Below are positions 5,970 to 22,839 of a stretch of DNA of 64,000 nt, piece after piece; position 1 is the stretch's first letter; each line of letters starts with the position of its first letter. A program made the translations under genes and the position numbers. The notes beneath the pieces are model-generated. The model was not told the origin of the DNA, did no database searches, and saw only the letters and a program-made list of their open reading frames with translations. This DNA comes from a virus, in IMG/VR virus record IMGVR_UViG_3300043436_003324. One strand, given 5' to 3'.

Positions 5970-5970
5970 T

Positions 5971-8526: not shown

Positions 8527-8560
8527 TATTAATATATTTATAATATAAAATAATAATAAT

Positions 8561-10696
8561 ATGGGAAATAACGCTTTAGAAGTATTAAGAATAAAAAAGT
8601 TAATGGGATTAAAACCAACATTAAAAGAAGGTTTTTACGGTTTAAACAAATTATTACTTAACGAAGAAACCGGTTATGGTGAGGCAATGCAAATAATCAA
8701 GTCTTTGGTTAAGAAAACCACACAAAATCTTACAGATCTTGAAAAAAAGTATCTTAAACAGATGATTGAGGAATTTAATCAAAAATATGGAGATGAGTAT
8801 GGTGATTTACTAGATGAGGGAAAAATGACAGATCTTATTAGAACAAATTTAACAAAAATGTTAAATGAAGTTTCAGATGATGAAACCATTAATTTTTTTA
8901 GTGGTGTTATACAAAGAATAACGAGAGATGACCTTGCAACTACAGGTTTAAAATCTATTACTACTATGGATGATGCCTTTAAACAACTCATGGATGGAAG
9001 TATGTCTAATTTTAGTAGAACTAATCCAGATGGTTCTGTTGTTGATGCAAGTTTTTTAGATTCATTAAGATATATCTATAGACAAGGTAGTTTAAGAAAT
9101 GCGGATTTACCTGAAGAATTAATTAACGAACTTGAGGGTAAAGTTTTAGGTGCTATTGATGAAATACCTGCAGATGAGCCTATGGCTAAATACTTGTTGG
9201 ATCTTAAAGATCAAATAGATGAAATAAGAAGTGGGGAAGGTAAGTTACCAACCACAGAAGAAATTACAGATATAACAAATAATGTAAGTTCAATTAAAAC
9301 TAATTTGGAAAACCCTGTAACTCCTCGTGTAATTTCAGATCCAGATGTTGAGATTGAAATTGGTAATGGGTCTAGTATAATAGATGATGCGGAACAAACG
9401 CTTGGGGGTCAAACTGCCGAGGAAATGGATAAAAACATGAGAAAGGCCTTTGTAGAAGGTATGAGAAAAAGTTGTAAATCTAGATTTTGTAGTACCATGA
9501 CGGCCTATTATTACGGAGCACCTGAGAAGTTCAACTCAATGTGGGAGGAGTTATTAATACAAATTAATGATAGGCTTAAGGTAAAAATCTCAGGAGATGT
9601 AGATCCTCTTTTAGATAAGGAACTTTTAGCACTATCAGAAAGACTTAAAATGTTACAATCAGGAAAAAAGGTATTTACAAGAGATGATTATATTAAAATT
9701 GGTGAGGCTGTTTGGAAAAAATGGAGTTCTGGAAGTTTCTTGGAGAAATTTAGTTTAGGAGGATTATTTGGTACTAAAGAACAAGGGTTTTATACTATAG
9801 CAAGAACATTTTTAGGTCAAGATATTTATAGTGGTAAATTTTTAACTCGTAATGAGTTAATAAAAAGATGGGCATTAATTAATGGTCTTGTATTAACTTA
9901 TCATGTTGGGACAACACTTTATGAAGTTAGTTTTGGAAGTGATGATCCTAATAAAAGTGATGAGGAGATTATAAAGGATGGTATAGCCGATATAGTAGAA
10001 GATGGTCTGTCTCTTCTTGGTGGCCCTCCTGTATGGAGATTGGCGATTGAAGCAATAGGTAAAACAGTGGAACTTTTTATGCCAAGCTCAACTTACGTTA
10101 ATGAAGAGGATTTGGTTGAGTGGATAAAAGAAGATTCTAAAACAAAACATGCACCTGGATATACAGATCTTGAGGTTTATGATAATGTAATTAATAATAC
10201 GGGAGTAACAATAACCTATGATTCAGAATCTAAAACACCATCAACCGTAATTAAAGGTATAACAGATCCTGATTTTATTTCCTATAATGGAACATACACT
10301 CAAGATAAAACAGGTCAATACACATACAAGTTAAATTTTAGACCTGAAGGTTCTAAAAAGGCAACAAAACAACTTAAAAGTAAGGGTGTTGATAAAGCAA
10401 TAATTGATCAACTTGAGTCAACAATTGCAACTAATTCGGCAATATCTTCTTATATTAAAGATAGGTTAACAGGAGTTATAAAATCCCATAAAAAATGGAT
10501 TGACTATGAAAAACAATTTACTCAAACCACAGATAAAGGAACTGAAGAATTATTAGTATTTTCATGGAAAGATAATGTAACTGGTGCGGAGTCTAAATTT
10601 ATCTTTAACTATACAACATGGAAAAATGATGGTGCTTTGGATTTAAAGGATGCCGTAAATTGGAATAAATATGTGGGCGAATATAAAGGAAACTAA
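8561..10696 (+). CDS. large hypothetical protein (putative virion-internal)
   Basis: 711 aa; N-terminus EVLRIKKLMGL..LKE; hydrophobic segment mid-protein. Confidence 0.55.
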   Translation: MGNNALEVLRIKKLMGLKPTLKEGFYGLNKLLLNEETGYGEAMQIIKSLVKKTTQNLTDLEKKYLKQMIEEFNQKYGDEYGDLLDEGKMTDLIRTNLTKMLNEVSDDETINFFSGVIQRITRDDLATTGLKSITTMDDAFKQLMDGSMSNFSRTNPDGSVVDASFLDSLRYIYRQGSLRNADLPEELINELEGKVLGAIDEIPADEPMAKYLLDLKDQIDEIRSGEGKLPTTEEITDITNNVSSIKTNLENPVTPRVISDPDVEIEIGNGSSIIDDAEQTLGGQTAEEMDKNMRKAFVEGMRKSCKSRFCSTMTAYYYGAPEKFNSMWEELLIQINDRLKVKISGDVDPLLDKELLALSERLKMLQSGKKVFTRDDYIKIGEAVWKKWSSGSFLEKFSLGGLFGTKEQGFYTIARTFLGQDIYSGKFLTRNELIKRWALINGLVLTYHVGTTLYEVSFGSDDPNKSDEEIIKDGIADIVEDGLSLLGGPPVWRLAIEAIGKTVELFMPSSTYVNEEDLVEWIKEDSKTKHAPGYTDLEVYDNVINNTGVTITYDSESKTPSTVIKGITDPDFISYNGTYTQDKTGQYTYKLNFRPEGSKKATKQLKSKGVDKAIIDQLESTIATNSAISSYIKDRLTGVIKSHKKWIDYEKQFTQTTDKGTEELLVFSWKDNVTGAESKFIFNYTTWKNDGALDLKDAVNWNKYVGEYKGN

Positions 10697-10697
10697 A

Positions 10698-12122
10698 ATG
10701 AAACTACTTGATCTATTATTAGAAGAATCTTCATGTGATGCAACCAAATGTGACGGAGCATTCCAAGTAATTCCGAATGGGGTAAATGGTGATACGTATA
10801 AAACTTCTTCAGAATATTTGTACTGTGAGACTCTTGTTTCAAGTAATATAGTAAGAAAATACTGTAAAAAAAAGAAATCAGCTCCTGTTGACCCAAAACC
10901 TGTCGTGGCAGGTACATGTCCTAGCGATGAGGGATATGTAAATAAAGAGTTTCAAGAGTGGGTTTGGAAAACTCATCTTGGTAAAGCAGAGACCGATACG
11001 GTAACAACTAAATTATGTGGCATAAAAACAAATGGTAGTGCAAAAACTTGTGCATATTCAGCGGCAGTAGGAACCGGATGTGGTGATGGAACAAAGGCGG
11101 TATGGAAAGAATTAAGAGATAAATTTATTGAGTTTAAAAAAGGCAACCAAAACCCTGTTGTGGATCCTGAAGCAAAAAAGAAAGAATGTGAGTCTCAAGG
11201 AATGAACTATGATGAGACAACAAAAAATTGCGTGGCAAAAAAACAAGAGGTTGATCCTGATGCTCAACAACTTGTTAATTCTATGGAACAATATAGAACT
11301 ATATTAAATAGTTTTTACGACCCGACAGGTTGGATTAACGTAAACACCCTATCTCCATCGGAGTATGTTCCAAATTTCTTGTCTTTAAAAATGTTAACAC
11401 AAGTAACTAAACAAATTGTGGAACTAATAAATCAAAAAGTTAGTTCTTCTGATTTTGGTTCATTTGTGGAAATGATGGAGACATTAAAAATATCGTATAA
11501 CGTAGAAAAATACAAAGATTTTTTCCAAAAAAAGGTAGATCCTACAGGGACCGATGTTTTTGGAAGTATTGACACATTAATCAATGAAATAAAAACATCC
11601 GCAAATGAAAGTAAAACGGCTTACGGTTATGACCCATTAACATCACCAACGGAAAAACAAATTAGAGATTTTGTGTTTAGAGGTCAATTAAGGTCTGTAT
11701 ATAAATCAGGTAGACTTAATCTTATGATGATGGTTTATACGTATACTGATACTCAGCCTTTAAAAACAAATAATAAAGAGTCAGTTTCGGAAATAACAAG
11801 TTTTTATAACGAGGTAAGTAAAAATAGAAATTTTGACAATTGTAAAAATATTCTAGGTGTTTATAGAGAAACATACCAAGAGGATGGAGTTTACTCACCA
11901 ACTTTATTGGTTAATGTAAAGACCGAAATACAAAAATGTTGGTGTGATAAACAATACGAAGATTTAGGTAAATTAGGTACTAAAAACATGTTCGATAAAG
12001 AAATGAGAAAAGGTAGAAAAGAATTAATTAGTTTTTTAAATCAATTACCAAGTGCTACCATGGGAGATTTTGCGGTTAGACTTAATAGTGGAGTTTGTAC
12101 TAAAAATAAAAGTTATAGGTGA
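10698..12122 (+). CDS. Cys-rich hypothetical protein
   Basis: likely start MKLLDLLLEE at 10698, right after the previous stop; many Cys pairs. Confidence 0.5.
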   Translation: MKLLDLLLEESSCDATKCDGAFQVIPNGVNGDTYKTSSEYLYCETLVSSNIVRKYCKKKKSAPVDPKPVVAGTCPSDEGYVNKEFQEWVWKTHLGKAETDTVTTKLCGIKTNGSAKTCAYSAAVGTGCGDGTKAVWKELRDKFIEFKKGNQNPVVDPEAKKKECESQGMNYDETTKNCVAKKQEVDPDAQQLVNSMEQYRTILNSFYDPTGWINVNTLSPSEYVPNFLSLKMLTQVTKQIVELINQKVSSSDFGSFVEMMETLKISYNVEKYKDFFQKKVDPTGTDVFGSIDTLINEIKTSANESKTAYGYDPLTSPTEKQIRDFVFRGQLRSVYKSGRLNLMMMVYTYTDTQPLKTNNKESVSEITSFYNEVSKNRNFDNCKNILGVYRETYQEDGVYSPTLLVNVKTEIQKCWCDKQYEDLGKLGTKNMFDKEMRKGRKELISFLNQLPSATMGDFAVRLNSGVCTKNKSYR

Positions 12123-12198
12123 TACTGAAAACACTTATCGATCGTAGTTGATTGGTAAGGATAAACCATCAAAGAAAGGGGAGGTGTTCATTATCTAG

Positions 12199-12232
12199 CA
12201 AAATGGGAACTTAGGTTCCCATTTTGTTTTAT
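12199..12232 (+). terminator. intrinsic terminator
   Basis: CAAAATGGGAAC-TTAG-GTTCCCATTTTG followed by a T run. Confidence 0.75.
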
Positions 12233-12271
12233 ACTTTAAAAATATTTTTTTTTTCATAATATATATATTAT

Positions 12272-12976
12272 ATGGAGGAAGTTTTAGATTTTTGTATTGT
12301 TATTACAACATATAATAGACCAATAAAATTGTACAGTCTTATGACTTCTATTTATCAATCTAAAAAAGATTATAATATAAAAATATTTGTTTTTGATGAT
12401 AATAGTACTGAGGTTTACGAAAGAAATAAAATAGACGCAACATTTATTAAAATGTACCCAAATAGAGGAAAATTTAAATTTTGGGAAATAATAGATACGA
12501 CATTCAAAACAATAAAAAATATAAATTCAAAATATTTTGTTTTTATTCAGGATGATTTAAAATTAACTGATAATTTTTTAGAAAATATTAAAAACAAGTA
12601 TGAATCATTAATAGATGAAAAAAAAATTTGTTTAGAATTTAGAACAGATAATAGGGTTTTATCCCCAAATTGGACTAGCGTCAATCCGCAAAATCAAGGT
12701 GAATATATAAAAACACAATGGACCGAATTAGATTTTATTTGTGAAAAAAAATTTTTTGAGGTTCTTGATCATAAAATTAATCCAATACCGATGAGTAGAT
12801 GGGAAAAAGATAAAAATTTAAGTTCAGGTGTTGGATCTCAATTAAGTGAGAGGTTATTATCTTTGGGTTATAATATGTATCACACAAGTAAAAGCCTTGT
12901 TATACATGACGGAGAAGAATCCAAAATGAATATAGAAGAGAGAATTTTAAATAAATTAAAGACTAACATCAAATAA
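12272..12976 (+). CDS. glycosyltransferase, GT2/GT-A fold
   Basis: IVITTYNR, VFDDNS, FIQDD motifs. Confidence 0.8.
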   Translation: MEEVLDFCIVITTYNRPIKLYSLMTSIYQSKKDYNIKIFVFDDNSTEVYERNKIDATFIKMYPNRGKFKFWEIIDTTFKTIKNINSKYFVFIQDDLKLTDNFLENIKNKYESLIDEKKICLEFRTDNRVLSPNWTSVNPQNQGEYIKTQWTELDFICEKKFFEVLDHKINPIPMSRWEKDKNLSSGVGSQLSERLLSLGYNMYHTSKSLVIHDGEESKMNIEERILNKLKTNIK

Positions 12977-12981
12977 GATTT

Positions 12982-13599
12982 ATGAATATTATTACATTTT
13001 ACAATGACAAAATAAATAAAGAATTCCCAATTTTACAAAAAAAGGTTTTTCAAAAATATAAACAAGACATAAAACAATTTTTAATAAAAGATTGGGTGTC
13101 ACACGGAAAACATATAGATGATTATTTAAAGACAATATCGGATGAAAATGAAATAATTGTTCTATTTGATATAGATTGTATTCCTTTAAACGATGAAATT
13201 ATAATTAAGGCGGTAAAATGGGCAAAGGAAAATATTGGAATATACTCAATGTCTCAAACTGCAAAATATTTGAATTACCCTATAATACACTCCGCACCAG
13301 CCTTTATGGTTTTTTCAATAAAGACATTTAATAAATTAGGGAGACCATCATTTTTACCTAATGAAAGATCAGATTGTGGTGCCGAAATGACATGGTCTGC
13401 AAGGGAAAAAGGTATTGATGTATTTTTACTTTACCCTAGTCATTGTGAATCACCACATACTAAATTAGAAAACGGACAAGGAAGTATAATGTTTGGGCAT
13501 GGAACAACATACGGAAACTCAATTTATCATGCGTTTGAATCAAGATTTTCTAAACTTGATGGTTTTTTTATTAATAAATGTAAAAAAGTATTATCTTAA
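12982..13599 (+). CDS. GT-A fold glycosyltransferase-like protein
   Basis: HGKHID..LFDIDCIPL (DxD); lies between two GT2 genes. Confidence 0.6.
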   Translation: MNIITFYNDKINKEFPILQKKVFQKYKQDIKQFLIKDWVSHGKHIDDYLKTISDENEIIVLFDIDCIPLNDEIIIKAVKWAKENIGIYSMSQTAKYLNYPIIHSAPAFMVFSIKTFNKLGRPSFLPNERSDCGAEMTWSAREKGIDVFLLYPSHCESPHTKLENGQGSIMFGHGTTYGNSIYHAFESRFSKLDGFFINKCKKVLS

Positions 13600-13601
13600 A
13601 T

Positions 13602-15287
13602 ATGGAAAAAATTGTTGTAAATATATCATCATATAACAGAATTAATTCATTGTTAAACACATTAACATCCATATATAATCAATGTGATGAGATTAATGTT
13701 TGTTTAAATGACTATAATGGAGAAATACCAAAGTTTTTATTATCACCTAAAATAAATTTAACATTTACTGACAACTCAAAGGGAGACGCATTTAAATTCC
13801 TTCACTTGGGAAAAGAGAATTGTTATTACTTAACAATAGATGATGATATTGTATACCCACCTAATTATGTTGAGTATATGGTGTCAAAATGTAAATTTTA
13901 CAAAAATAAATCAATAATTACTCTACATGGTAGGAATTTTAAAACGTTCCCAATTAAAAGTTATTATAATAGTGCAAACGAAAGATTTTATTTTTTCCAA
14001 GATTTAAATAAAGATGTTGGGGTACAATTCGGGGGTACTGGTGTTATGTGTTTTCATTCTTCCATACTTAAAAAAAATATTGATGATTTTTTATACCCTA
14101 ATATGGCAGATGTTTGGATTGGGAAATTTGCTAATGAAAATAATATAAAAATAATATGTGTTGAGCATAGTGGTAATTATTTAAAATCTATAGAACAAAA
14201 AGAAACTATATTTGACAATTATAAAAAAAATGACTCAATTCAGACAACTATTGTAAATCAAACTTTTTTAAATAAAAAAGATATAGAACTTTCAGTTGTA
14301 ATGCCAACTTTTAATAATGTTAATTTTATTGACGAAACTATTAACTCCGTAATCAAATCTAGTATTGACAAAAAAATAGAAATTTTAATTGGTATTGATG
14401 ATTGCGAAAAAACTTTAACACATATAAAAACAAAAAATTACCCTGAGTTTGTTAATTTTTATTTTTTTAGTAAAAATAATGGACCGTATATAATAAAAAA
14501 TTCATTATCCAAAATTGCCAAGTCAGACAAATTACTTTTTTTTGATACTGATGACATAATGAATGATAGTATGATTAATGTGATAATTGATGAATTATCA
14601 AAAAATATTTGTGTAAAACCTAAATATATAGATTTTGGAGGTTCATCATTAGGTGGATCTAAATATGGTGAAGGTGTTTTTGGTATAAAAAAAGATGTCT
14701 TTTTAACAATGAATGGTTTTGAAAACTGGAGGGTTGCTGCGGATTCTGATTTTATGGGAAGATTATATAAAATGAAACCAAAAATTTTACACACCAAAGA
14801 TGTTATGTTTAAAAGACGTGTTCACCCAGAAAGTTTAACTAACAGAAAAGATACTGGTATGTCATCCGCCTTAAGGGCAAATTATGCAAGAATAAGTAAA
14901 CAAAAAAAAGGTCATGGTAACCCAAATGAATTAAGTGTTTTTCCGTTTTCTAAAATTGATTTAGTTTTTTTCAAAACAGAAAGAAAAAAAGAAGAAGAAG
15001 TTATTTCACATAGTATCAAAAACCAAAAATTAATAAGTGATGTCTTTAATAAAATTCCAAAAAAAATAAATACCGAACCTGAAAATATAAAAAAACAAAG
15101 AGTAGTGTCGGACAATCCTTTATTTAATCTTCTTAAAAATAAAGAAAAAGTAACTGAAGTTAATAGAGTAACAGAACAAAGAAAAAATATTGAACAAATA
15201 AAACAAAAAACAAAGAGACAAATTAACGAGGAGTTTAACCCACCAAAACCAAATAGAAGACTTGATCTACCAAAATTAAGATTTTAA
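13602..15287 (+). CDS. two-domain GT2 glycosyltransferase with basic C-terminal tail
   Basis: ISSYNR...TIDDDIVYP (domain 1); VVMPTFN...FFDTDD...AADSDF (domain 2). Confidence 0.8.
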   Translation: MEKIVVNISSYNRINSLLNTLTSIYNQCDEINVCLNDYNGEIPKFLLSPKINLTFTDNSKGDAFKFLHLGKENCYYLTIDDDIVYPPNYVEYMVSKCKFYKNKSIITLHGRNFKTFPIKSYYNSANERFYFFQDLNKDVGVQFGGTGVMCFHSSILKKNIDDFLYPNMADVWIGKFANENNIKIICVEHSGNYLKSIEQKETIFDNYKKNDSIQTTIVNQTFLNKKDIELSVVMPTFNNVNFIDETINSVIKSSIDKKIEILIGIDDCEKTLTHIKTKNYPEFVNFYFFSKNNGPYIIKNSLSKIAKSDKLLFFDTDDIMNDSMINVIIDELSKNICVKPKYIDFGGSSLGGSKYGEGVFGIKKDVFLTMNGFENWRVAADSDFMGRLYKMKPKILHTKDVMFKRRVHPESLTNRKDTGMSSALRANYARISKQKKGHGNPNELSVFPFSKIDLVFFKTERKKEEEVISHSIKNQKLISDVFNKIPKKINTEPENIKKQRVVSDNPLFNLLKNKEKVTEVNRVTEQRKNIEQIKQKTKRQINEEFNPPKPNRRLDLPKLRF

Positions 15288-15331
15288 CTTGATATTGTTT
15301 TAAGTATTAAGTATTTTTAAATAAAAAACTT

Positions 15332-15520
15332 ATGTTCATTATAATTAAACACGTAAAAACAAATAATAAAGGAATTTCAGGTAAAAGACTTCCTGTAATA
15401 TTATTAAATACCGAAACTGAAGTGTGGGAATTTAACACCATCGAAGAGGCCGAAAAAATGAAAGAGATCTTCCAAACTAATTCTGATTCAGGTCACATAT
15501 ACGAAGTAAAAAAAATATAA
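15332..15520 (+). CDS. small hypothetical protein
   Basis: 62-aa ORF. Confidence 0.45.
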   Translation: MFIIIKHVKTNNKGISGKRLPVILLNTETEVWEFNTIEEAEKMKEIFQTNSDSGHIYEVKKI

Positions 15521-15649
15521 TATGGAAGAAATTTTAGAATTAATTCATAACGAATTTATAGAATCGGAAGATTACTACGTGTTCTTACGTAGATTGGATG
15601 AAGAACAGGAAAATATTGAAAAAACACTTGTCAATTAAAAAAAATCACA

Positions 15650-15657
15650 TATATTTG
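15650..15657 (+). promoter_or_regulatory. Bacteroidota-type -7 promoter (TAnnTTTG)
   Basis: TATATTTG; the same motif occurs at 16579, 19744, 20224, 21857, 22808, 33912, 33997, 37699 and on the minus strand at 36550 and 61722, often with TTTG about 20 nt upstream. Confidence 0.7.
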
Positions 15658-15702
15658 TACAAGAATTAAAATTTTTAGAAAAAACAATATATTTATAACA
15701 AG

Positions 15703-15813
15703 ATGAAAACAACTAATAGACATATGAACATTTGTAACCCGAGCATTCAGTGGTCGTTTAACGTGTATCGTACGCTTAAGTCGCATAATAGGGCATTTTC
15801 ATTTATAAGTTGA
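15703..15813 (+). CDS. putative attenuator leader peptide 1 (36 aa)
   Basis: MKTTNRHMNICNPSIQWSFNVYRTLKSHNRAFSFIS, double stop TGA TAA, terminator about 30 nt later, then the tRNA array. Confidence 0.65.
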   Translation: MKTTNRHMNICNPSIQWSFNVYRTLKSHNRAFSFIS

Positions 15814-15844
15814 TAAAGATTAACTAAACATATAAGAAATATAA

Positions 15845-15876
15845 GACCCTAACTCAAAACAGTTAGGGTTTTTTTA
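15845..15876 (+). terminator. intrinsic terminator (attenuator) before tRNA block 1
   Basis: ACCCTAACT-CAAAAC-AGTTAGGGT followed by a T run. Confidence 0.8.
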
Positions 15877-15889
15877 TACCCAAAAATTT

Positions 15890-15962
15890 GGTTCCTTAGT
15901 ATAGTTTGGTAATATCCCGGCTTTGTAACCCGGAGTCATCAGTTCGACCCTGATAGGAACCT
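15890..15962 (+). tRNA. tRNA-Thr(UGU)
   Basis: cloverleaf; loop TT-TGT-AA; GTTCGA T-loop; some anticodon-stem mismatches. Confidence 0.8.
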
Positions 15963-16004
15963 CAAACAAAAAGAAAAAGTTCTTTGACATATTGGCTTCA
16001 TAAT

Positions 16005-16076
16005 TCTCCCCTCGTCTAATTGGCAGGACATCTGGTTTTGGGCCAGAGAATCAAGGTTCGAGACCTTGGGGGAGAT
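16005..16076 (+). tRNA. tRNA-Gln(UUG)
   Basis: TCTGG-TTTTGGG-CCAGA anticodon arm. Confidence 0.85.
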
Positions 16077-16080
16077 CAAT

Positions 16081-16166
16081 GGAAGGGTAATCACAACGGC
16101 TTGTGACACCGTCTTGAAAACGGTAGGTACTGAAACATGTATGGGGATCGACACCTCACTCTTCCT
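16081..16166 (+). tRNA. tRNA-Ser(UGA)
   Basis: ACCGT-CTTGAAA-ACGGT; long variable arm. Confidence 0.85.
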
Positions 16167-16175
16167 CTAAAATAA

Positions 16176-16250
16176 CGGGATGTGGACTAATTGGTAAGTC
16201 GCCACTTTTGGGAAGTGGACATCGTCCAGGTTCGAGTCCTGGTATCCCGA
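16176..16250 (+). tRNA. tRNA-Pro(UGG)
   Basis: CGGGA 5' end; CCACT-TTTGGGA-AGTGG. Confidence 0.9.
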
Positions 16251-16265
16251 CTAATAAATAAACAA

Positions 16266-16454
16266 ATGGTAACAAACAAAGAATGTGAGATAATCTCAAT
16301 TAAAGGAAAATTTGAAGGTTTAAATAATTATTACCTAAGTTTATCCAAAATTAGTAAAGACCCAACCTACCGTGGGGATTTAACAGAAGAATTAAAAAGA
16401 GTAGAAACAGAAATAAACCTAAACAATCAAAAACTAATGTCCTATGGAAAGTGA
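16266..16454 (+). CDS. small hypothetical protein
   Basis: likely start ATG 16266 (MVTNKECE...), downstream of tRNA-Pro. Confidence 0.4.
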   Translation: MVTNKECEIISIKGKFEGLNNYYLSLSKISKDPTYRGDLTEELKRVETEINLNNQKLMSYGK

Positions 16455-16472
16455 CAAGTATGACAAACAGAA

Positions 16473-16547
16473 GATCTCGTAGCTCAGTTGGTTTAGAGCA
16501 CTCCACTTTTAATGGAGGGGTCGTGAGTTCGAGCCTCACCGGGATCA
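16473..16547 (+). tRNA. tRNA-Lys(UUU)
   Basis: CTCCA-CTTTTAA-TGGAG. Confidence 0.9.
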
Positions 16548-16590
16548 CAAAAAAATTTGGTAGATTAAAAAAAACCATTAACTTTGTACT

Positions 16591-16806
16591 ATGAATAAAG
16601 TAGAGAAAATTAAAAAAGGACTTCCAAACGGAATGGTTAAGGTTGGGGAAGAATGTGAGAGAGCAATCGTAAGATTGGTTAAACAAGGTAAATCCGAAAA
16701 CGAGGCAACAGAAATTGTTTTGAAACTATTAAAAGATAGTAAACCTTATATTGAACAAGGAATGTACTCTACCACAATTGAAAGTATTAAAATGATAACA
16801 TCATAA
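16591..16806 (+). CDS. small hypothetical protein
   Basis: 71 aa, directly after a TAACTTTG promoter. Confidence 0.5.
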   Translation: MNKVEKIKKGLPNGMVKVGEECERAIVRLVKQGKSENEATEIVLKLLKDSKPYIEQGMYSTTIESIKMITS

Positions 16807-16808
16807 AC

Positions 16809-16882
16809 GCACCTTTAGCTCAGATGGTAGTAGCGGTTGTTTTACATACAACAGGTCACAGGTTCGATCCCTGTAGGGTGTA
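16809..16882 (+). tRNA. tRNA-Val(UAC)
   Basis: GTTGT-TTTACAT-ACAAC. Confidence 0.9.
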
Positions 16883-16886
16883 CAAA

Positions 16887-17006
16887 GGTTGATTGGGGAA
16901 TGATATAACGTTAACGTGTCAGTAGTTCGTAGTTATGTCGGAGTTTTAACTGTCATAGTAACGCCAATCATAAAAGGGGATGTCCACGGAACCATCTTCC
17001 CCTTTC
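16887..17006 (+). ncRNA. unassigned structured RNA
   Basis: TGATTGG/CCAATCA closing stem, then an AAAGGGGA..TCCCCTTT hairpin; GC-richer non-coding stretch between tRNAs. Confidence 0.45.
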
Positions 17007-17013
17007 CTGAATC

Positions 17014-17094
17014 GGGAACTGAAAGTCGTTCGGATACGGCAGCGAAACTGTAAATTTCGTCCTCACGGGAGTGGTTCGAGTCCACCAGGTCCCA
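17014..17094 (+). tRNA. tRNA-Tyr(GUA)
   Basis: CGAAA-CTGTAAA-TTTCG; variable arm. Confidence 0.8.
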
Positions 17095-17102
17095 CAACAA
17101 AT

Positions 17103-17175
17103 GGACAAGTAGCTCAATTGGGAGAGCATCGTACTGTTAATACGAGGGTTGTAGGATCGTACCCTACCTTGTCCG
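17103..17175 (+). tRNA. tRNA-Asn(GUU)
   Basis: TCGTA-CTGTTAA-TACGA. Confidence 0.9.
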
Positions 17176-17181
17176 CAACAA

Positions 17182-17254
17182 GTTCACGTAGCTCAATTGG
17201 TAGAGCGCCGATCTGATACGTCGGAGGTAATGGGATCGTAACCCGTCGTGAACA
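17182..17254 (+). tRNA. tRNA-Ile(GAU)
   Basis: CCGAT-CTGATAC-GTCGG. Confidence 0.9.
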
Positions 17255-17312
17255 CAAAAAGGGGAATAACTTGTGTGGGTGCCTCAACTACTGCAGGAGT
17301 ACCACACTCTAT

Positions 17313-17399
17313 GGAAGATAAACCTTGATGGCGATAGGGTCCGCCTGCTAAGCGAGATGTACCCGTAAGGGGTATTTGGTTCGATTCCAATGTCTTCCT
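17313..17399 (+). tRNA. tRNA-Ser(GCU)
   Basis: CGC-CTGCTAA-GCG; long variable arm. Confidence 0.85.
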
Positions 17400-17403
17400 C
17401 AAC

Positions 17404-17473
17404 TCCCGTATGATCAGGGATCAAAGTTGGCTCATATCCGACTTTAGAGTGGTTCGATACCACTATACGGGAC
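17404..17473 (+). tRNA. tRNA with CAU anticodon (Met or Ile2), shrunken D-loop
   Basis: TCCCGTA/TACGGGA acceptor; TTGG-CTCATAT-CCGA; D-loop of only about 3 nt. Confidence 0.65.
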
Positions 17474-17478
17474 AACAT

Positions 17479-17552
17479 GGTGTTTGTAGCTCAATCGGGA
17501 GAGCGTCGGTTTGTGGAACCGAAGGTAGTGGGATCGAAACCCACCATTCACC
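17479..17552 (+). tRNA. tRNA-His(GUG)
   Basis: TCGGT-TTGTGGA-ACCGA; G-1:C73. Confidence 0.85.
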
Positions 17553-17687
17553 CAAAAGAATTTACAACGGACAAGGCTTAGGCAAGTGAGTTGAGAATGA
17601 GTAGTAGGAGATTTAATCGTTTGGACTACAGAAAGTTTGATACAAGAGATTGGTGGGATGCGAGTGGTTGACCAAAATTCTTTAATT

Positions 17688-17760
17688 GCCCACATAGTTC
17701 AACTGAACAGAATACCCAATTACGGATCGGGAGATAGGAGTTTGAATCTCTTTGAGGGTA
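17688..17760 (+). tRNA. tRNA-Arg(ACG)
   Basis: CCCAA-TTACGGA-TCGGG. Confidence 0.8.
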
Positions 17761-17765
17761 CAACT

Positions 17766-17838
17766 GCCCCCATCGTCCAACTGAACAGGACGTTCCCCTT
17801 CTAAGGGAAAGATCGGAGTTTGAATCTCTGTGGGGGTA
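17766..17838 (+). tRNA. tRNA-Arg(UCU)
   Basis: TTCCC-CTTCTAA-GGGAA. Confidence 0.9.
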
Positions 17839-17845
17839 CAAAACA

Positions 17846-17918
17846 CACATGGTACAGACAAGGTGTCGGTCAGGTCTCCAAAACCTCGACGGGTTAGTTC
17901 GATTCTAACACCATGTGC
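17846..17918 (+). tRNA. tRNA-Trp(CCA)
   Basis: AGGT-CTCCAAA-ACCT. Confidence 0.85.
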
Positions 17919-17963
17919 AAAAATTAATTTTGCCAGTTAAAAAAAATTTTGTATCTTTACAGT

Positions 17964-18458
17964 ATGAAAGACACACTACCATATTGTACTACAGTAAAAG
18001 CAATCAAAGGTTATGAAGAATCCGTAATTGCGAAAAATGAAACCAACGATTGTGTTGTAAGAGCATTTGCATCTTGTTTTGATGTGTCTTACGATTACGC
18101 TCACAAATACGTTAGAGAAAATTTTGGTCGTAGAGATCGTAACGGTACTTATGGTACTGTAGATAAAATGACTAAACTTGCAGAAAATAGAAGTCAAGTA
18201 AACTACAAAAAAGTTAAGTGTGTTGGTAAATTAAACAATTACCGTAGACACACTTTGGAGTACGATGTTAAAGTAAATGGTGAGAGAGTTAAACGTAAAA
18301 TGACTGTGGGTACATTTACAAAACAAAACCCTATTGGGACATTCTTTATGTTGGTTAGCCGTCACGCTTTCACAATCAAAGATGGTGTGGTAATTGGTAA
18401 CCACGAGGATTCAACCAAGAAAAAACGTGTATTACTTCATGCGTTTGAAGTTAAATAA
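17964..18458 (+). CDS. conserved phage protein with NDCVVRA...H motif (possible papain-like fold)
   Basis: start ATG 17964 after a TATCTTTAC promoter variant; Cys...His...Asp pattern. Confidence 0.5.
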   Translation: MKDTLPYCTTVKAIKGYEESVIAKNETNDCVVRAFASCFDVSYDYAHKYVRENFGRRDRNGTYGTVDKMTKLAENRSQVNYKKVKCVGKLNNYRRHTLEYDVKVNGERVKRKMTVGTFTKQNPIGTFFMLVSRHAFTIKDGVVIGNHEDSTKKKRVLLHAFEVK

Positions 18459-18521
18459 GACGGGAGGCGAGAGTTGAGGGTAGAACCGTTAGGATACCTC
18501 AACCAAGTCCTCCCTGAAGAA

Positions 18522-18594
18522 GGACAGGTAGCTCAGTTGGTAGAGCTCAGGATTGAAGATCCTGGAGTCGGGGGTTCGAAACCCTCTCTGTCCA
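18522..18594 (+). tRNA. tRNA-Phe(GAA)
   Basis: CAGGA-TTGAAGA-TCCTG. Confidence 0.9.
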
Positions 18595-18610
18595 CAAATA
18601 AAAAGAAATA

Positions 18611-19066
18611 ATGAACAGAGTATTTAGGACAATTAATGGTGAAGCGATACCTGATGTGGTTAAACACACCTTAGATGTTTTAAAGGAATGTCCTTGGGTT
18701 GAAATACATATCGGTACAGATTCACAAAACCACAGAAGAAGTACCGTATACGTTACGGTAATTGCTTACAGGTATGGTAACAGAGGTGTTCACTACATCC
18801 TTCATAAACAAAAGGTTAAGAAGATTAAAGATAAGTGGACACGTCTTTGGAATGAAGCCGATTATTCAATTGAGGTGGCTGAATGGTTAACTCAAAAAGT
18901 AAAAGTTAAGGTTGAAATAGATTTGGATTATAACTGTGAAGAAAAACACTACAGTTCAAAACTAGTTCCTCCCGTTGTTGGGTGGGCAACGTCGTTAGGT
19001 TATAAATCAAATATTAAACCTGACAATCAAATTGCAACAAGAGCGGCAGATCACCACTGCCGTTAA
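18611..19066 (+). CDS. RNase H-like YkuK family protein
   Basis: IHIGTDSQ...RLWNEADYSIEVA...IDLDYN pattern. Confidence 0.75.
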   Translation: MNRVFRTINGEAIPDVVKHTLDVLKECPWVEIHIGTDSQNHRRSTVYVTVIAYRYGNRGVHYILHKQKVKKIKDKWTRLWNEADYSIEVAEWLTQKVKVKVEIDLDYNCEEKHYSSKLVPPVVGWATSLGYKSNIKPDNQIATRAADHHCR

Positions 19067-19067
19067 T

Positions 19068-19138
19068 GGTCCTGTGTCCGAGTGGTTAGGAGGCGGTCTG
19101 CAAAACCGTTTACGTTGGTTCAAATCCAATCGGGACCT
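19068..19138 (+). tRNA. tRNA-Cys(GCA)
   Basis: GCGGT-CTGCAAA-ACCGT; U73. Confidence 0.9.
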
Positions 19139-19147
19139 CAATAAAAT

Positions 19148-19228
19148 GCCCCTGTGATGGAATGGTAGACATGTCAGATTTAGGGTCTGATGCCGTAAGG
19201 TGTGAGAGTTCGAGTCTCTCCGAGGGTA
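19148..19228 (+). tRNA. tRNA-Leu(UAG)
   Basis: TCAGA-TTTAGGG-TCTGA; variable arm. Confidence 0.9.
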
Positions 19229-19247
19229 CAAACAAAAAAAAGTGAAG

Positions 19248-19490
19248 ATGGAAAAGTTGATGAAAAATAAAGAAGGAGAATACCTATACGTTTTTGATAT
19301 AATTCAAAACGGTAAAGTTGCAGGGTCAAATATTTTGTGGAGTAAGAACTTCATCCAAGTAATGGCGAGTGCAAAAAAAAGATTTGGTAATGTGGATAAT
19401 GAGTCTTTTAAAAGATTAACCAAAGATGAGTACGCAACTATGATCGAGGATCAAAAAACAAAAAAACTTGATAAAAAAAGAAAGTGGTGA
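19248..19490 (+). CDS. small hypothetical protein
   Basis: basic ORF of about 80 aa after tRNA-Leu. Confidence 0.45.
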   Translation: MEKLMKNKEGEYLYVFDIIQNGKVAGSNILWSKNFIQVMASAKKRFGNVDNESFKRLTKDEYATMIEDQKTKKLDKKRKW

Positions 19491-19577
19491 TTTAAATCGT
19501 ATATTGAATATTTATTAATAAAACTTGACACTTTTAAAAAGTATCATATATTTATAACAAAACAAATAAAAACGCAA

Positions 19578-19652
19578 ATGAAAAATTTACATATCATATT
19601 ATTAGGCGGATTGGCGATAGCTGAGGATACTACCTATAAGGAGATGGTATGA
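19578..19652 (+). CDS. putative attenuator leader peptide 2 (24 aa)
   Basis: MKNLHIILLGGLAIAEDTTYKEMV, double stop TGA TAA; GGAGATGG (19640-19647) is complementary to the terminator arm CCATCTCC (19682-19689). Confidence 0.75.
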   Translation: MKNLHIILLGGLAIAEDTTYKEMV

Positions 19653-19676
19653 TAATTTAACACATAATAAATTTTG

Positions 19677-19710
19677 AAAACCCATCTCCAAAAGAGGTGG
19701 GTTTTTTTGT
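19677..19710 (+). terminator. intrinsic terminator (attenuator) before tRNA block 2
   Basis: AAAACCCATCTC-CAAAA-GAGGTGGGTTTT followed by a T run. Confidence 0.85.
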
Positions 19711-19755
19711 TCTTTGAAATTTTGGAAATTAAAAAATAAACAGTATCTTTGTTTT

Positions 19756-20046
19756 ATGATAACATTTGATGATATAGAGTTTAAACCACATGGTATTGGT
19801 AATGGGGTTCACGGATTACTGTTTTTTCCTGGAGGATACGGAATCTCGGTTGTAAGATTTAAATCTCCTTTTGGTGGGGGTGGATCATATACTTCAGATG
19901 ATGATGATTATGAGGTCGCCGTTATTAAAGGAACAAAAGATGATTGGGAAATTTCTTATGACACAAAAATAACTAATGATGTTTTGGGTTATCAAACTAA
20001 AGAGGATATAAATAAATTAATTACTCAAATTTTAAGATACTGTTAA
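19756..20046 (+). CDS. conserved hypothetical phage protein
   Basis: start ATG 19756 after a TATCTTTG promoter; F..GYGISVV...YEVAVI pattern. Confidence 0.55.
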   Translation: MITFDDIEFKPHGIGNGVHGLLFFPGGYGISVVRFKSPFGGGGSYTSDDDDYEVAVIKGTKDDWEISYDTKITNDVLGYQTKEDINKLITQILRYC

Positions 20047-20047
20047 A

Positions 20048-20212
20048 ATGAAAACAAAGGAAAAAAATATCGTACATAAGATGATCTTGGGTAGTCAAAG
20101 AGTTGCTCAAAAAGAACAAGGTTTTTTTGATGGTAGATTTGTTACTAGATCTATGGATTTAAAAAATAATTACACAAGGAAAGAAAAACACAAAAAAAGT
20201 TTGGTAGATTAG
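20048..20212 (+). CDS. 54-aa basic peptide, ArfA-like
   Basis: ...GRFVTRSMDLKNNYTRKEKHKK resembles the ArfA FRQR...SYxRKxKH motif; absent from the ORF track. Confidence 0.4.
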   Translation: MKTKEKNIVHKMILGSQRVAQKEQGFFDGRFVTRSMDLKNNYTRKEKHKKSLVD

Positions 20213-20313
20213 AAAAAACCTTGTATATTTGTAAGACAAACAACGGGGGTAGGAAGTGAGAGGTTGGTGTCCTACTCCCGTGAAGACAGAAGAAGTTCAT
20301 TGAGATAAAAATA

Positions 20314-20398
20314 TAGTGGTTGTAAGAAACGGGAAACTTGTAAAGTACATTAACCTGTTGGCTCAAGATGGTGAAACAAGAGTGTGAGTCAACTACTA
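20314..20398 (+). ncRNA. unassigned structured RNA
   Basis: TAGTGGTTG/CAACTACTA closing stem; follows a promoter, a hairpin and a boxA-like site. Confidence 0.35.
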
Positions 20399-20411
20399 AC
20401 TACATAAATTT

Positions 20412-20484
20412 GTTAGGTGGGCGTAATGAGGGACGGTGCCCGAATCCTATAGGTTGCTTATCCGGTTCGAGTCCGGCCCTGACA
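20412..20484 (+). ncRNA. tRNA-like RNA without a canonical anticodon arm
   Basis: acceptor-like stem and T-arm CCGG-TTCGAGT-CCGG; GAATCC..GGTTGCT core shared with 22463-22545. Confidence 0.55.
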
Positions 20485-20497
20485 AAAAAATTTTAAA

Positions 20498-20621
20498 TAG
20501 GTAAGTGGCGGAATTGGTAGACGCTTAGGTTTATTCCCCGTAAGAAGTCACCGAGATATAGCTGGGGATGTCTCTTGAAAAGGGAACTATATCGTACAGG
20601 TTCGAATCCTGTTTTACCTAC
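20498..20621 (+). ncRNA. Leu-type tRNA-like RNA with about 70 nt between the D- and T-arms
   Basis: TAGGTAA/TTACCTA acceptor, GTGGCGGAATTGGTAGACGC D-arm, ACAGG-TTCGAAT-CCTGT T-arm; no normal anticodon arm. Confidence 0.55.
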
Positions 20622-20703
20622 ATATCGCGGGAGATAAAGTTGATTTCTCTAAAAAAAGTTTGTAGTGATAGGTATTTTTGAGTTTTAATATATATTTATA
20701 TAT

Positions 20704-21297
20704 ATGGAAAAACTTAACAAATATCAGAAAGGGGCACAAACAACAAAGAAAATTTTACAAGAGCGTTCTTTGAAAAATTATTATGATAACCCAAAGATTT
20801 GTAAAAATTGTGGTAAAATAATTGAGGTTAAAGAAAGTGAAAAACCAAGACACGTAAGAAAAAAAACTTTTTGTAATAGTTCTTGTTCTGCGACTTATAA
20901 CAATAAAGTTAGAGAACTGAAAAGAGAAAAAAAAGTAGTTGAAGGTATTAAAAAAGAAAAAAAAGAAAAGTTTGAATTTTTGTTAGATATGACAAAAAAA
21001 GAACTATATGAAAAACACGGAGTTTATTATAAATTTAGGGCTGTAGTTAGAAAACACGCACATTATGTTTTTAATAAACACACAACAAAAAAAGAATGTT
21101 TAATATGTGGATATTCTAATCATGTTGAGGTTTGTCATATAAACTCAGTTTCGTCTTTTGGTGGTGATGAATTAATAAGAAACATAAACTCAATTGATAA
21201 TTTAATCGGTTTATGTCCTAATCATCATTGGGAGTTTGATAACGGAAAAATAGATATATCGCGTGAAGGTGTAATTGGTTGCATGGGACGCTCATAA
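20704..21297 (+). CDS. HNH homing endonuclease with N-terminal Zn-finger
   Basis: CKNCGK...FCNSSC; CLICGY..HVEVCHI...NLIGLCPNHHWEFD; 3' end runs into a tRNA. Confidence 0.85.
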   Translation: MEKLNKYQKGAQTTKKILQERSLKNYYDNPKICKNCGKIIEVKESEKPRHVRKKTFCNSSCSATYNNKVRELKREKKVVEGIKKEKKEKFEFLLDMTKKELYEKHGVYYKFRAVVRKHAHYVFNKHTTKKECLICGYSNHVEVCHINSVSSFGGDELIRNINSIDNLIGLCPNHHWEFDNGKIDISREGVIGCMGRS

Positions 21298-21331
21298 CGT
21301 CTACGGGGTGGTTCAAATCCACGACACGCTA
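21260..21331 (+). tRNA. tRNA-Met(CAU), initiator-like acceptor (C1.U72)
   Basis: GGACG-CTCATAA-CGTCT; CGCG 5' end; lacks the three G-C anticodon-stem pairs of a typical fMet. Confidence 0.7.
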
Positions 21332-21409
21332 CTATAGCAAACCAAGCTTTACTACGATACGGGTAATACCTGTGGGTTAGGGGTGACGGTCAGGAGAGAC
21401 TGACGATTA

Positions 21410-21492
21410 TGCTGACGTACCAGTGGACGCTTATATCGTCTATGACTGTAGTGGTAAGTTTAAAACGTTGGTTCGAATCCAACCGTCAGTAC
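21410..21492 (+). ncRNA. tRNA-like RNA, non-canonical topology
   Basis: 8-bp TGCTGACG/CGTCAGTA stem, GTTGG-TTCGAAT-CCAAC T-arm, nested hairpin GGACG-CTTATAT-CGTCT. Confidence 0.5.
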
Positions 21493-21497
21493 AATAA

Positions 21498-21569
21498 GCG
21501 GGTATCGTATAATGGTTATTACTCCACACTTCCAATGTGGAGATGAGTGTTCGATTCATTCTACCCGCA
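21498..21569 (+). tRNA. tRNA-Gly(UCC)
   Basis: GCGGG 5' end; CCACA-CTTCCAA-TGTGG. Confidence 0.9.
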
Positions 21570-21574
21570 CAAAT

Positions 21575-21647
21575 GGGCCTGATGCCGACGGCAGGTCGAC
21601 TGATTTGCAATCAGATCGTATGGGTTCGATTCCCACAGTGTCCACCA
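21575..21647 (+). tRNA. tRNA-Ala(UGC)
   Basis: CTGA-TTTGCAA-TCAG; G3.U70; encoded CCA. Confidence 0.8.
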
Positions 21648-21878
21648 AATAAACAATTAATACAAATGAATGATGAGAGAAGTTTTATCAGGAACCTCAG
21701 AGTCATCGAAAGTTAAAATGGGTAAAATTAACACGAATACTGACTGGTTGAAGAAACTGAAAAAAACGCTTAATAGAACGAAGTACAAGTTTAGAGTGGG
21801 GAGCGGGTCCCACAAAAAAATTTAAAAAAAGATTTGGTAGATTGAAACAGTTTACATATCTTTGTAATAAAACAAAAT

Positions 21879-21950
21879 GGTCCCATCGACTATCGGTTAG
21901 GTCGCCAGGTTTTCATCCTGGAAAGTCGGGTTCGACTCCCGGTGGGACTA
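21879..21950 (+). tRNA. tRNA-Glu(UUC)
   Basis: CCAGG-TTTTCAT-CCTGG. Confidence 0.9.
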
Positions 21951-22010
21951 CAATGAAATGAACAACATAGCACACAAGTTGTACCTCTACGGTTTTAAAG
22001 TGTGTTTATT

Positions 22011-22086
22011 GGAGATTAGGTCAAATGGTTAAGATGTCGCCCTGTCACGGCGTTCGGAGCGGGTTCGACTCCCGTAATCTCCGCCA
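22011..22086 (+). tRNA. tRNA-Asp(GUC)
   Basis: CGCC-CTGTCAC-GGCG; G73; encoded CCA. Confidence 0.9.
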
Positions 22087-22094
22087 AAAAAAAT

Positions 22095-22181
22095 AGTCAG
22101 GTGGCGGAATTGGATAGACGTAGCCCCATCAGTGGGTAGTGGTGAAAGAAACACATACAGGTTCAAATCCTGTCCTGACTA
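22095..22181 (+). ncRNA. Leu-type tRNA-like RNA with an aberrant anticodon arm
   Basis: AGTCAGG/CCTGACT acceptor, Leu-like D-arm and T-arm; anticodon arm GCCC-CATCAGT-GGGT lacks U33. Confidence 0.55.
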
Positions 22182-22271
22182 CTAAAAAATAAAAATTATG
22201 ACACCAATATTATTTGTATTATTTGTTTTGTTTATCTTTATGGTAAGAAAGAGAAAATAACTCTTTAAAAT

Positions 22272-22358
22272 GCTCGGATGGTGGAATTGGTAGACACGAC
22301 AGGTTTAAGCTCTGTTGACCAGTGGGTTGTGAGGGTTCGAGTCCCTCTTCGAGTACCA
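22272..22358 (+). tRNA. tRNA-Leu(UAA)
   Basis: ACAGG-TTTAAGC-TCTGT; variable arm; encoded CCA. Confidence 0.9.
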
Positions 22359-22366
22359 ACGATAAA

Positions 22367-22453
22367 CTTCAGTACCCGTACCGCCAACGTAGGGTTAAAT
22401 TAGATACAATTTCGTGTTACATTTATGTATGTGCGGGGAGTAGAATGCTGAAG
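22367..22453 (+). ncRNA. unassigned structured RNA
   Basis: CTTCAGTA/TGCTGAAG and CCCGTAC/GTGCGGG stems separated by a GAGTAGAA bulge. Confidence 0.5.
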
Positions 22454-22462
22454 AGTCGGGTT

Positions 22463-22545
22463 TGTCAGGAGTGTAAAGAAGTGTGGTACTGAATCCATCT
22501 GTTAAAGATGGTTGCTCATTGTGGGTTCGAATCCCACCCTGACAT
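22463..22545 (+). ncRNA. tRNA-like RNA, same family as 20412-20484
   Basis: TGTCAGG/CCTGACA, GTGGG-TTCGAAT-CCCAC, GAATCC-hairpin-GGTTGCT core. Confidence 0.55.
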
Positions 22546-22549
22546 CAAA

Positions 22550-22624
22550 GGTCCTATAGCTCAGTTGGTTAGTAGCACTTGACTCATAATCAAGGGGTCG
22601 CAGGTTCGAGTCCTGCTGGGACCA
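22550..22624 (+). tRNA. tRNA-Ile2(CAU, lysidine type) or Met
   Basis: GGTCCT 5' end, CTTGA-CTCATAA-TCAAG, A73; resembles bacterial Ile2. Confidence 0.8.
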
Positions 22625-22694
22625 CAAAAACACTATTTTCTTTTTAAAATAGTATTAATATATTTTTAAAAAAGGGGAGGAATACCCCAAAATT

Positions 22695-22766
22695 GGCTCC
22701 ATAGTTAAATGGATATAACGAATCTCTTCTAAAGATTAGTTCCTAGTTCGATTCTAGGTGGGGCTA
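22695..22766 (+). tRNA. tRNA-Arg(UCU), second copy
   Basis: AATCT-CTTCTAA-AGATT. Confidence 0.85.
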
Positions 22767-22839
22767 CATTTTTTTTAAAAAAATTTTGTACATCTCAGAA
22801 ATTCCCTTATCTTTGTTTAAACCAAAAAACATTAAGGAT

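Follow-up and report, generated by a model that had tools for sequence, protein, structure and literature searches.

A candidate ribosome-mediated attenuator with a codon-diverse leader peptide in front of a phage tRNA array

Directly in front of a block of tRNA genes in a viral genome lies a short open reading frame, leader 1, which is followed by an intrinsic terminator. We tentatively propose that it is the translated leader of a ribosome-mediated attenuator, which gates read-through from a strong promoter into these genes (tRNA block 1). The window, i.e., the whole stretch of 64,000 nucleotides that was analysed (IMG/VR record IMGVR_UViG_3300043436_003324), is AT-rich, with a G+C content of 31%, and appears to be a section of a jumbo-phage genome. 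Leader-peptide attenuation is textbook material for amino-acid operons, but we know of no description of it for tRNA genes.

The elements follow each other from 5' to 3' in the order promoter, A-rich untranslated stretch, ORF, TGA TAA, 27-nt spacer, terminator and tRNA-Thr (Table 1), and this order is the same in all of the about 45 relatives with enough flanking sequence. A 36-codon ORF with a double stop and a terminator before tRNA-Thr had been noted in an earlier, sequence-only reading of this DNA, and the coordinates agree when they are read anew from the sequence. The arms of the terminator are 15844-15854 and 15861-15871, its seven T occupy 15869-15875, and tRNA-Thr(UGU) starts at 15890, 14 nt past the T-run. 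A separate promoter downstream of the terminator can be discarded, since only these 14 nt, without a motif, precede tRNA-Thr. In the untranslated leader, the conserved box ends 3 nt upstream of the ATG of leader 1. This leader is highly conserved in alignments of the relatives, where it has indels of 1, 4, 5, 6 and 7 nt, from which follows that the stretch is non-coding.

Table 1. Features of leader 1, tRNA block 1 and leader 2 in the window and, in the last two lines, leaders of other loci.
Feature	Position	Strand	Details
Leader-1 promoter	15628..15657	+	TTG at 15628, 19 nt, then TATATTTG ending at 15657
5' untranslated leader, A-rich	15658..15702	+	conserved box TATATTTATAAC at 15688-15699
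Leader-1 ORF	15703..15816	+	36 sense codons (to 15810), TGA 15811-13, TAA 15814-16
Candidate antiterminator, 5' strand	15789..15800	+	TAGGGC and TTTC, codons 29-33
Stop-codon hairpin (predicted)	15808..15825	+	AGTTGAT, loop AAAG, ATTAACT; apex of the antiterminator stem-loop
Intrinsic terminator	15844..15875	+	11-bp stem, 6-nt loop, seven T
tRNA-Thr(UGU), Gln(UUG), Ser(UGA), Pro(UGG), Lys(UUU)	15890..16548	+	without a promoter of their own after the terminator
Rest of block 1	16809..19229	+	Val, Tyr, Asn, Ile, Ser-GCU, Met, His, Arg (two), Trp, Phe, Cys, Leu-UAG
Leader 2	19525..19710	+	promoter 19525-19554; 24-codon ORF 19578-19649, then TGA TAA; terminator 19679-19710
L075 leader (also L076)	6194-6480		distant homologue of leader 1, 41 codons
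L060 leader (also L061, L062)	6146-6300		unrelated leader of 28 codons

The promoter of leader 1 is of the Bacteroidota type (-33/-7), and TTGTCA-16-TATATT also fits. The window contains 8 matches to the motif TTG-N19-TAnnTTTG, with 2.3 expected, and none of 100 shuffled sequences reaches 8. With a spacing of 17-21 nt, the motif is found on the + strand at 15628, 16557, 19722, 20201, 21834 and 22786, before genes of the tRNA region. The motif stands before both leaders, the promoter of leader 1 being paralogous to that of leader 2, and in the relatives the letters TA..TTTG at leader 1 are conserved while the two middle letters vary. Because a Bacteroidota-type motif is enriched before the genes of the tRNA region, the host probably belongs to the Bacteroidota; one tRNA of the window resembles a tRNA of a Tenacibaculum phage.

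ARAGORN finds 14 tRNAs in 15890-19229 with default settings and 18 at a relaxed threshold, and the four that are gained (Ser-UGA, Ser-GCU, Met and Trp) occur at the same places in the relatives. The 18 tRNAs are identical, in set and in order, to those listed for block 1 in the sequence-only reading. The distal part of the block also holds interspersed small ORFs and, between tRNA-Phe and tRNA-Cys, an RNase H-like gene (18611-19066; Pfam PF04308, E 7e-25), which is present there in all relatives. After the terminator of leader 1, the next one on the + strand is at 19679. There are promoter-like sites inside the block at 16557, which is the first past the leader-1 terminator, and at 17930. From this follows that the attenuator alone gates only the tRNAs for Thr, Gln, Ser, Pro and Lys. 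As candidate promoters, the two sites would feed the distal part of block 1. In block 2, a tRNA-Ala(UGC) lies at about 21575-21650; it is 94% identical to the tRNA-Ala of locus L002, and was missed by cmscan and by ARAGORN at every threshold tried.

Several other features of the tRNA region were observed. A structured RNA at 20201-20500 has its own promoter and starts with a G-run, as in tmRNA; homologues are found in loci L044, L046, L048, L049, L053 and L065, and its equivalent in L075 (8690-9060) has a tag-like reading frame that ends in ...YAVAA. The predictions of ARAGORN for the window do not include a tmRNA. At 20499-20620, an Rfam tRNA match (35 bits) extends over 122 nt and marks a tRNA-like gene into which about 50 nt are inserted. 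The ORF at 20704-21297 encodes 197 residues with His/Cys motifs that look HNH-like by eye, and it overlaps the start of a weak call of a tRNA-Met(CAU) at 21258-21332 (Rfam, 26 bits). An 88-nt tRNA at 22095-22182 has the anticodon UCA and would read UGA. In spite of this tRNA, wholesale recoding of UGA is unlikely, since TGA ends 8 of the 55 long ORFs in the window. Recoding was also considered as a reason for the double stop of leader 1 and was rejected, TAA standing alone at this place in other clades.

The relatives were retrieved by means of the RNase H-like gene of the array, which gave 67 viral loci, and later scans added more. They are phage contigs of up to about 310 kb from IMG/VR and from lake (freshwater) metagenomes. 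The leader-1 region can be aligned in about 45 loci, with identities of 73-94%; a metagenome scan returned close relatives only (78-97% identity), and no close relative was found among GenBank phages. The ORF is kept in every relative, with 34-37 codons and a conserved start. In this AT-rich sequence, none of the 43 distinct variants has an interrupted frame. Of the six distinct gap runs in the ORF, five measure 3 nt, and the sixth, of 4 nt, lies at the shifting stop codon, while gap runs in the 5' leader and in the spacer have every length from 1 to 9 nt. Comparisons within clades give a dN/dS ratio of 0.2-0.5, and those between clades one of about 1; eleven columns of the alignment do not vary between clades (M, K, T, H, M, P, W, S, Y, T and S). 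The indel pattern and the conserved start point to translation of leader 1. Because the frame is kept by in-frame indels and dN/dS is about 1 between clades, it appears that the ORF must be translated and that its product is loosely constrained, which fits a regulatory leader.

Consider now which codons this frame contains. Of the 36 codons, the tRNAs of block 1 can read 34, all but GCA and ATA, and all 18 tRNA classes are represented; Gly, Asp and Glu codons are absent. The list of codons that had been drawn up earlier, with one for each of the 18 tRNAs, proved correct on a re-count, and so did its statement that the missing amino acids and these two codons belong to block 2, where tRNA-Ala(UGC) has now been placed. 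When 36 codons are drawn with the codon usage of the phage's long genes, all 18 classes occur with a probability of about 1e-5, and 34 readable codons with a probability of 1e-4; for random codons that match leader 1 in base composition, the corresponding values are 0.003 and 0.006. The first 25 codons specify exactly the 16 amino acids of block 1 and no others (P 5e-4), and among 194 six-frame ORFs leader 1 itself is the only one with this property. A more lenient null comes from the window itself, whose six frames contain 102 ORFs that start with ATG and have 30-45 codons; two of these, one being the leader-1 ORF, have all 16 amino acids without Asp, Glu or Gly, so that the window alone is suggestive rather than conclusive. 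The absence of Asp, Glu, Gly and Ala is also an absence of GNN codons except those for Val, and could equally well reflect a basic peptide.

The choice of codons is unusual as well. Ten of the 36 are rare in the genes of this genome (CCG, AGC, CAG, TCG twice, GTG, CGT, ACG, AAG and AGG; P 0.003), which bears out an earlier remark on atypical codons ending in G or C. Leu is encoded by CTN in leader 1, in about 9 of 10 alignment columns according to a tally from the codon alignment, and by TTR in leader 2, as had been proposed for the two Leu isoacceptors; TTA makes up 61% of the Leu codons in the phage's genes. Beyond Thr-Thr there are no tandem codons, and the 36 codons specify 17 different amino acids. 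Between the order of the tRNA genes and the order of the leader-1 codons there is no correspondence.

The composition is largely conserved in the relatives. All 16 amino acids of block 1 are kept in 41 of the 43 distinct variants, in 32 of them within the first 25 codons, and 33 of the 43 lack Asp, Glu and Gly. This set is kept although up to 40% of the nonsynonymous sites differ: residues that are present in a single copy, e.g., His, Cys, Leu and Val, relocate to new positions rather than vanish. CCG and ACG, both of them rare codons, hardly vary. With the composition of the family and its fixed columns taken into account, the chance of a full set is 0.2-0.3 per sequence, and since the clades share ancestry, its retention is not made up of independent events.

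The terminator is the only consensus structure that RNAalifold finds in the family alignment. Compensatory changes occur in 4 of its 11 pairs among 30 sequences, and in every relative the first tRNA follows 9-16 nt after its T-run. When Rfam was searched with cmscan at E values up to 1 over 14500-24000, the + strand had no match in 15660-15889, and the His_leader, Trp_leader, Thr_leader, Leu_leader and T-box models did not match at leader 1. A family-wide antiterminator was not found by RNAalifold, neither with the full leader nor with the RNA cut before the right arm of the terminator. The register of the alternative pairing is not the same in all clades, and the analysis therefore turned to folds of single sequences, to swaps and to chimeras; the nascent RNA without the right arm was folded for 15 representatives. 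In all 15, the 3' part of the ORF, around codons 29-33, pairs with the spacer and the left arm of the terminator, and in the minimum-energy fold of most relatives the CCC of the terminator is paired with a GGG in these codons. Most of the representatives are predicted to form the stop-codon hairpin, which is short or shifted in a few, and the alignment contains a compensatory change in it between clades, from GTTAAT/ATTAAC to GTTAAA/TTTAAC. A search for the best duplex anywhere between the whole ORF and the left arm gave, in most sequences, nothing better than shuffled controls, and a pairing of AACCCGAGC (15736-15744) with the right arm of the terminator was dropped, as it does not covary.

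The strength of the alternative pairing differs between clades. In the window, TAGGGC (15789-15794) pairs with G.CCCTA (15845-15851) and TTTC (15797-15800) with GAAA (15836-15839), giving -9.9 kcal/mol with a z score of -1.93 (8 of 200 shuffled sequences are as good), to be compared with about -15 kcal/mol for the terminator. In clades A-C, to which the window belongs, native halves pair no better than chimeras between clades, and there is no co-variation. In clades D and E, the antiterminator amounts to -18 to -24 kcal/mol, with z scores from -3.7 to -6.0, and native halves beat chimeras. In L075, the right arm of the terminator is copied perfectly, over 9 bp, by codons 34-36 at the homologous site. 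The antiterminator TAGGG/CCCTA of the sequence-only reading was thus correctly placed, at a site where pairing is strong in clades D and E and in L075, but in the window it is weak. The folding of the nascent RNA, which had been named as a check, yields an alternative stem-loop in 15 of 15 representatives, which does not exceed chance in the window's own clade. As judged from these predicted folds, TAGGG/CCCTA sits where the family has a real antiterminator, which is degenerate in the window's own clade.

The proposed mechanism may be described as follows. RNA polymerase would start near 15663, and a ribosome would follow it on leader 1. When the ribosome is fast and arrives at the last codons or at the stop, it would melt the stem-loop 15789-15851, which otherwise holds the left arm of the terminator; the terminator (15844-15875) would then form, and transcription would end 14 nt before tRNA-Thr. 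When, instead, the ribosome is delayed within about the first 25 codons, the stem-loop would persist, the terminator would be pre-empted and the tRNA genes would be transcribed. Going by the size of a ribosome footprint, a ribosome at the stop codon should cover about 15796-15823, abutting the 5' strand and melting the apical hairpin, while an A site at or before about codon 25 should leave the antiterminator structure free. Since the first 25 codons cover 16 amino acids, corresponding to the 18 tRNA classes, with one codon or a few for each and many of these rare and ending in G or C, slow decoding at any one of them would raise the output of tRNA, and the result would be a feedback loop on tRNA supply.

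At the level of sequence, this proposal is supported by the anatomy of the locus, its conservation, the signs of translation, the covariation in the terminator, the match in composition and its conservation, and the antiterminators of distant relatives. The direction of the switch and its dependence on tRNA supply we infer, and the weakened antiterminator of the window may still work. That leader 1 senses the tRNA pool is plausible: the idea of a general sensor, put forward in the sequence-only reading, is favoured by the translated leader, the promoter, the terminator and a composition which agrees at the operon level, and disfavoured by the weak antiterminator in the window, by the promoter-like sites within block 1 and by tRNA losses on a fine scale.

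Agreement at the operon level can be judged from other layouts, beginning with leader 2, whose conservation extends over about 45 loci. The final codons of its ORF (GGAGATGG) pair with the left arm of its terminator (CCATCTCC), and this antiterminator, at -11.6 to -18.6 kcal/mol in 24 of 24 distinct versions, covaries, with changes matched in all three strands; it ends at most 2 codons before the stop. In several relatives tRNA-Leu(UAA), the first tRNA of block 2, begins 26-33 nt after the T-run of leader 2, in line with the earlier pairing of leader 1 with a second leader; in the window, leader 2 is followed by an inserted protein ORF, and the tRNAs are not directly next to it. Leu (TTR), Ile (ATA), Gly, Ala and Glu are always present in the peptide of leader 2, and Asp is missing from a single variant. 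Its match in composition is modest, with P 0.1-0.25 for recall and 0.001-0.03 for precision. From its sequence, leader 2 is taken to be a paired second attenuator, which ends transcripts from block 1.

Two further architectures are informative. L075 has a single attenuator (6435-6467), with no other terminator on the + strand until 14139, past both tRNA blocks, and in L075 and L076 block 2 has a plain promoter without a leader. Here the leader specifies all 20 amino acids and contains all 23 codon classes of the locus's tRNAs (P 1e-5 to 0.002). In L060 and L062, an array of 8 tRNAs (Thr, Gly, (Ser), Leu, Leu, Arg, Met and Ile(UAU)) is preceded by a leader whose antiterminator (GGATCCAG) lies within its last codons, and 18 of the 28 codons of the L060 leader belong to the tRNAs of its array (P 0.002-0.004). 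When four leaders are compared with four tRNA sets in a matrix of F1 values, the matching pair is at the top of every row and column (0.97, 0.72, 0.77 and 0.97). In L003, L010 and L017, on the other hand, many tRNAs of block 1 have been lost and the composition of the leader is unchanged. The comparison of leader composition with downstream tRNA content, suggested earlier as a check, therefore comes out in two ways: composition tracks the layout of the operon, as L075 and L060 show, but not the losses on a fine scale, where the refuting observation named in the sequence-only reading is indeed made. The data support that, in three different architectures, leader composition follows the tRNA set at the operon level, recent losses not being mirrored. 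The further suggestion that the codon set has been shaped to sample the controlled tRNAs thus has real comparative support at the operon level and fails at the fine scale.

Other explanations must be weighed against an attenuator that samples the tRNAs. It is very improbable that the region is a conserved non-coding RNA or an untranslated 5' leader, in which the open frame is incidental. Conservation of nucleotides that includes synonymous sites (low dS; fixed CCG, ACG and TAT) and a codon usage unlike that of the phage's genes would suit such an RNA, which cannot account for a frame that stays open in 43 of 43 distinct variants of an AT-rich sequence, nor for gap runs that are exactly 3 nt in 5 of 6 cases inside the ORF, the sixth being at the stop, when flanking indels have every length; moreover, conserved RNA structure is confined to the terminator and absent over the ORF, and no Rfam family matches there on the + strand. 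It is unlikely, too, that leader 1 belongs to the common run of small phage genes, encoding a basic peptide of 36 residues without regulatory coupling, its terminator also ending a long upstream operon (3696-15638), and the tRNAs being transcribed through leaky read-through and from internal promoters. The 11 fixed columns, the dN/dS of 0.2-0.5 within clades and a basic peptide without an acidic residue are what one expects of such a gene, no other + strand terminator lies between 3696 and 15844, and the weak antiterminator in the window's clade and the internal promoter-like sites at 16557 and 17930 point the same way. Against it stand the dN/dS of about 1 between clades, the 10 rare codons out of 36, a conserved promoter of its own immediately upstream, strong antiterminators at the homologous site in clades D and E and in L075, as well as in leader 2, and a terminator which is always 9-16 nt from the first tRNA, so that there is no room for a promoter.

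The remaining alternative accepts translation and termination and denies the specificity: a translated leader with a terminator would report only general translation capacity or the coupling between transcription and translation, shutting, for example, the output of a tRNA promoter once ribosomes are plentiful, and the match with block 1 would be a by-product of a diverse peptide free of acidic residues, together with shared ancestry. All evidence for translation and for the terminator applies equally to this explanation, and it gains from the fine-scale tRNA losses that the leader does not track, from a retention of the 16 amino acids which is only moderately unlikely given the family's composition, and from match statistics that are modest for leader 2 and L060. 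What it leaves unexplained is that a single leader in L075 has 20 amino acids and 23 classes, when the phages with two attenuators split them into 16 and the rest, that Leu is CTN in leader 1 and TTR in leader 2, and that the rare codons CCG and ACG have been fixed. We regard it as rather doubtful.

If leader 1 is indeed an attenuator, it has several known counterparts. As in the attenuators of Proteobacteria (trp, his, leu, thr, pheA and ilv), a short ORF in the 5' leader is followed by an intrinsic terminator, the predicted alternative pairing uses the left arm of the terminator at or near the end of the ORF, and the proposal shares with them the logic that a slow ribosome leads to read-through. 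It differs from these attenuators of amino-acid operons in that the target is tRNA genes rather than biosynthetic enzymes, and in that it belongs to a phage. Furthermore, in place of a run of codons for a single amino acid, each of 16 amino acids (20 in L075) is represented by one codon or a few, the antiterminator in the window is weak, and no Rfam leader family matches. Rare codons in the leu leader may sharpen the response of attenuation. Several amino acids per leader, as here, are found in multivalent attenuation (Leu, Val and Ile for ilvGMEDA and ilvBN; Thr and Ile for thr), but those leaders have clusters for two or three related amino acids, whereas leader 1 is a near-minimal list of the amino acids of every downstream tRNA.

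With T-box riboswitches, leader 1 as proposed has in common a switch in cis between terminator and antiterminator, which reports the state of the tRNA pool. T-boxes control genes for aminoacyl-tRNA synthetases and amino-acid genes; they bind uncharged tRNA through a specifier codon and the T-box motif, without translation, where leader 1 has an ORF instead. In the coupling-sensing attenuators of pyrBI and pyrE, read-through depends, as here, on the distance between polymerase and ribosome on the leader and not on one amino acid; those systems sense the speed of a polymerase limited by nucleotides, whereas leader 1 would sense the speed of a ribosome on a codon-diverse leader. The tRNA clusters of T4, T5 and jumbo phages resemble the present one in having small ORFs and homing endonucleases interspersed, and promoters upstream. 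In the literature searched, no leader-peptide attenuator is described for those clusters, and no paper describing one for a tRNA array was found. In relation to what is known, leader 1 is most likely a case of leader-peptide attenuation whose target is new, as its sensing logic would be.

Still more tentative than the proposal for leader 1 itself is its generalization to 'pangram' leaders, by which some jumbo phages would feedback-regulate their own tRNA arrays. Every gated tRNA class would be represented in such a leader by one codon or more, frequently a rare one, so that the slowest codon sets the transcription of the whole array; a second attenuator would split the codon set, and more phage tRNA would be made when host tRNAs are depleted or are cleaved by defence nucleases. 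If this is true, these leaders would be the first sensors to read many tRNA species with one short ORF, in a compact design that could be reused as a synthetic reporter of stress in translation elongation. The family would offer natural variants of it, with one or two leaders and with strong or weak antiterminators. For the phages, it would mean a direct link between the speed of decoding and the supply of tRNA during infection, and possibly a response to host defences that cleave tRNA.
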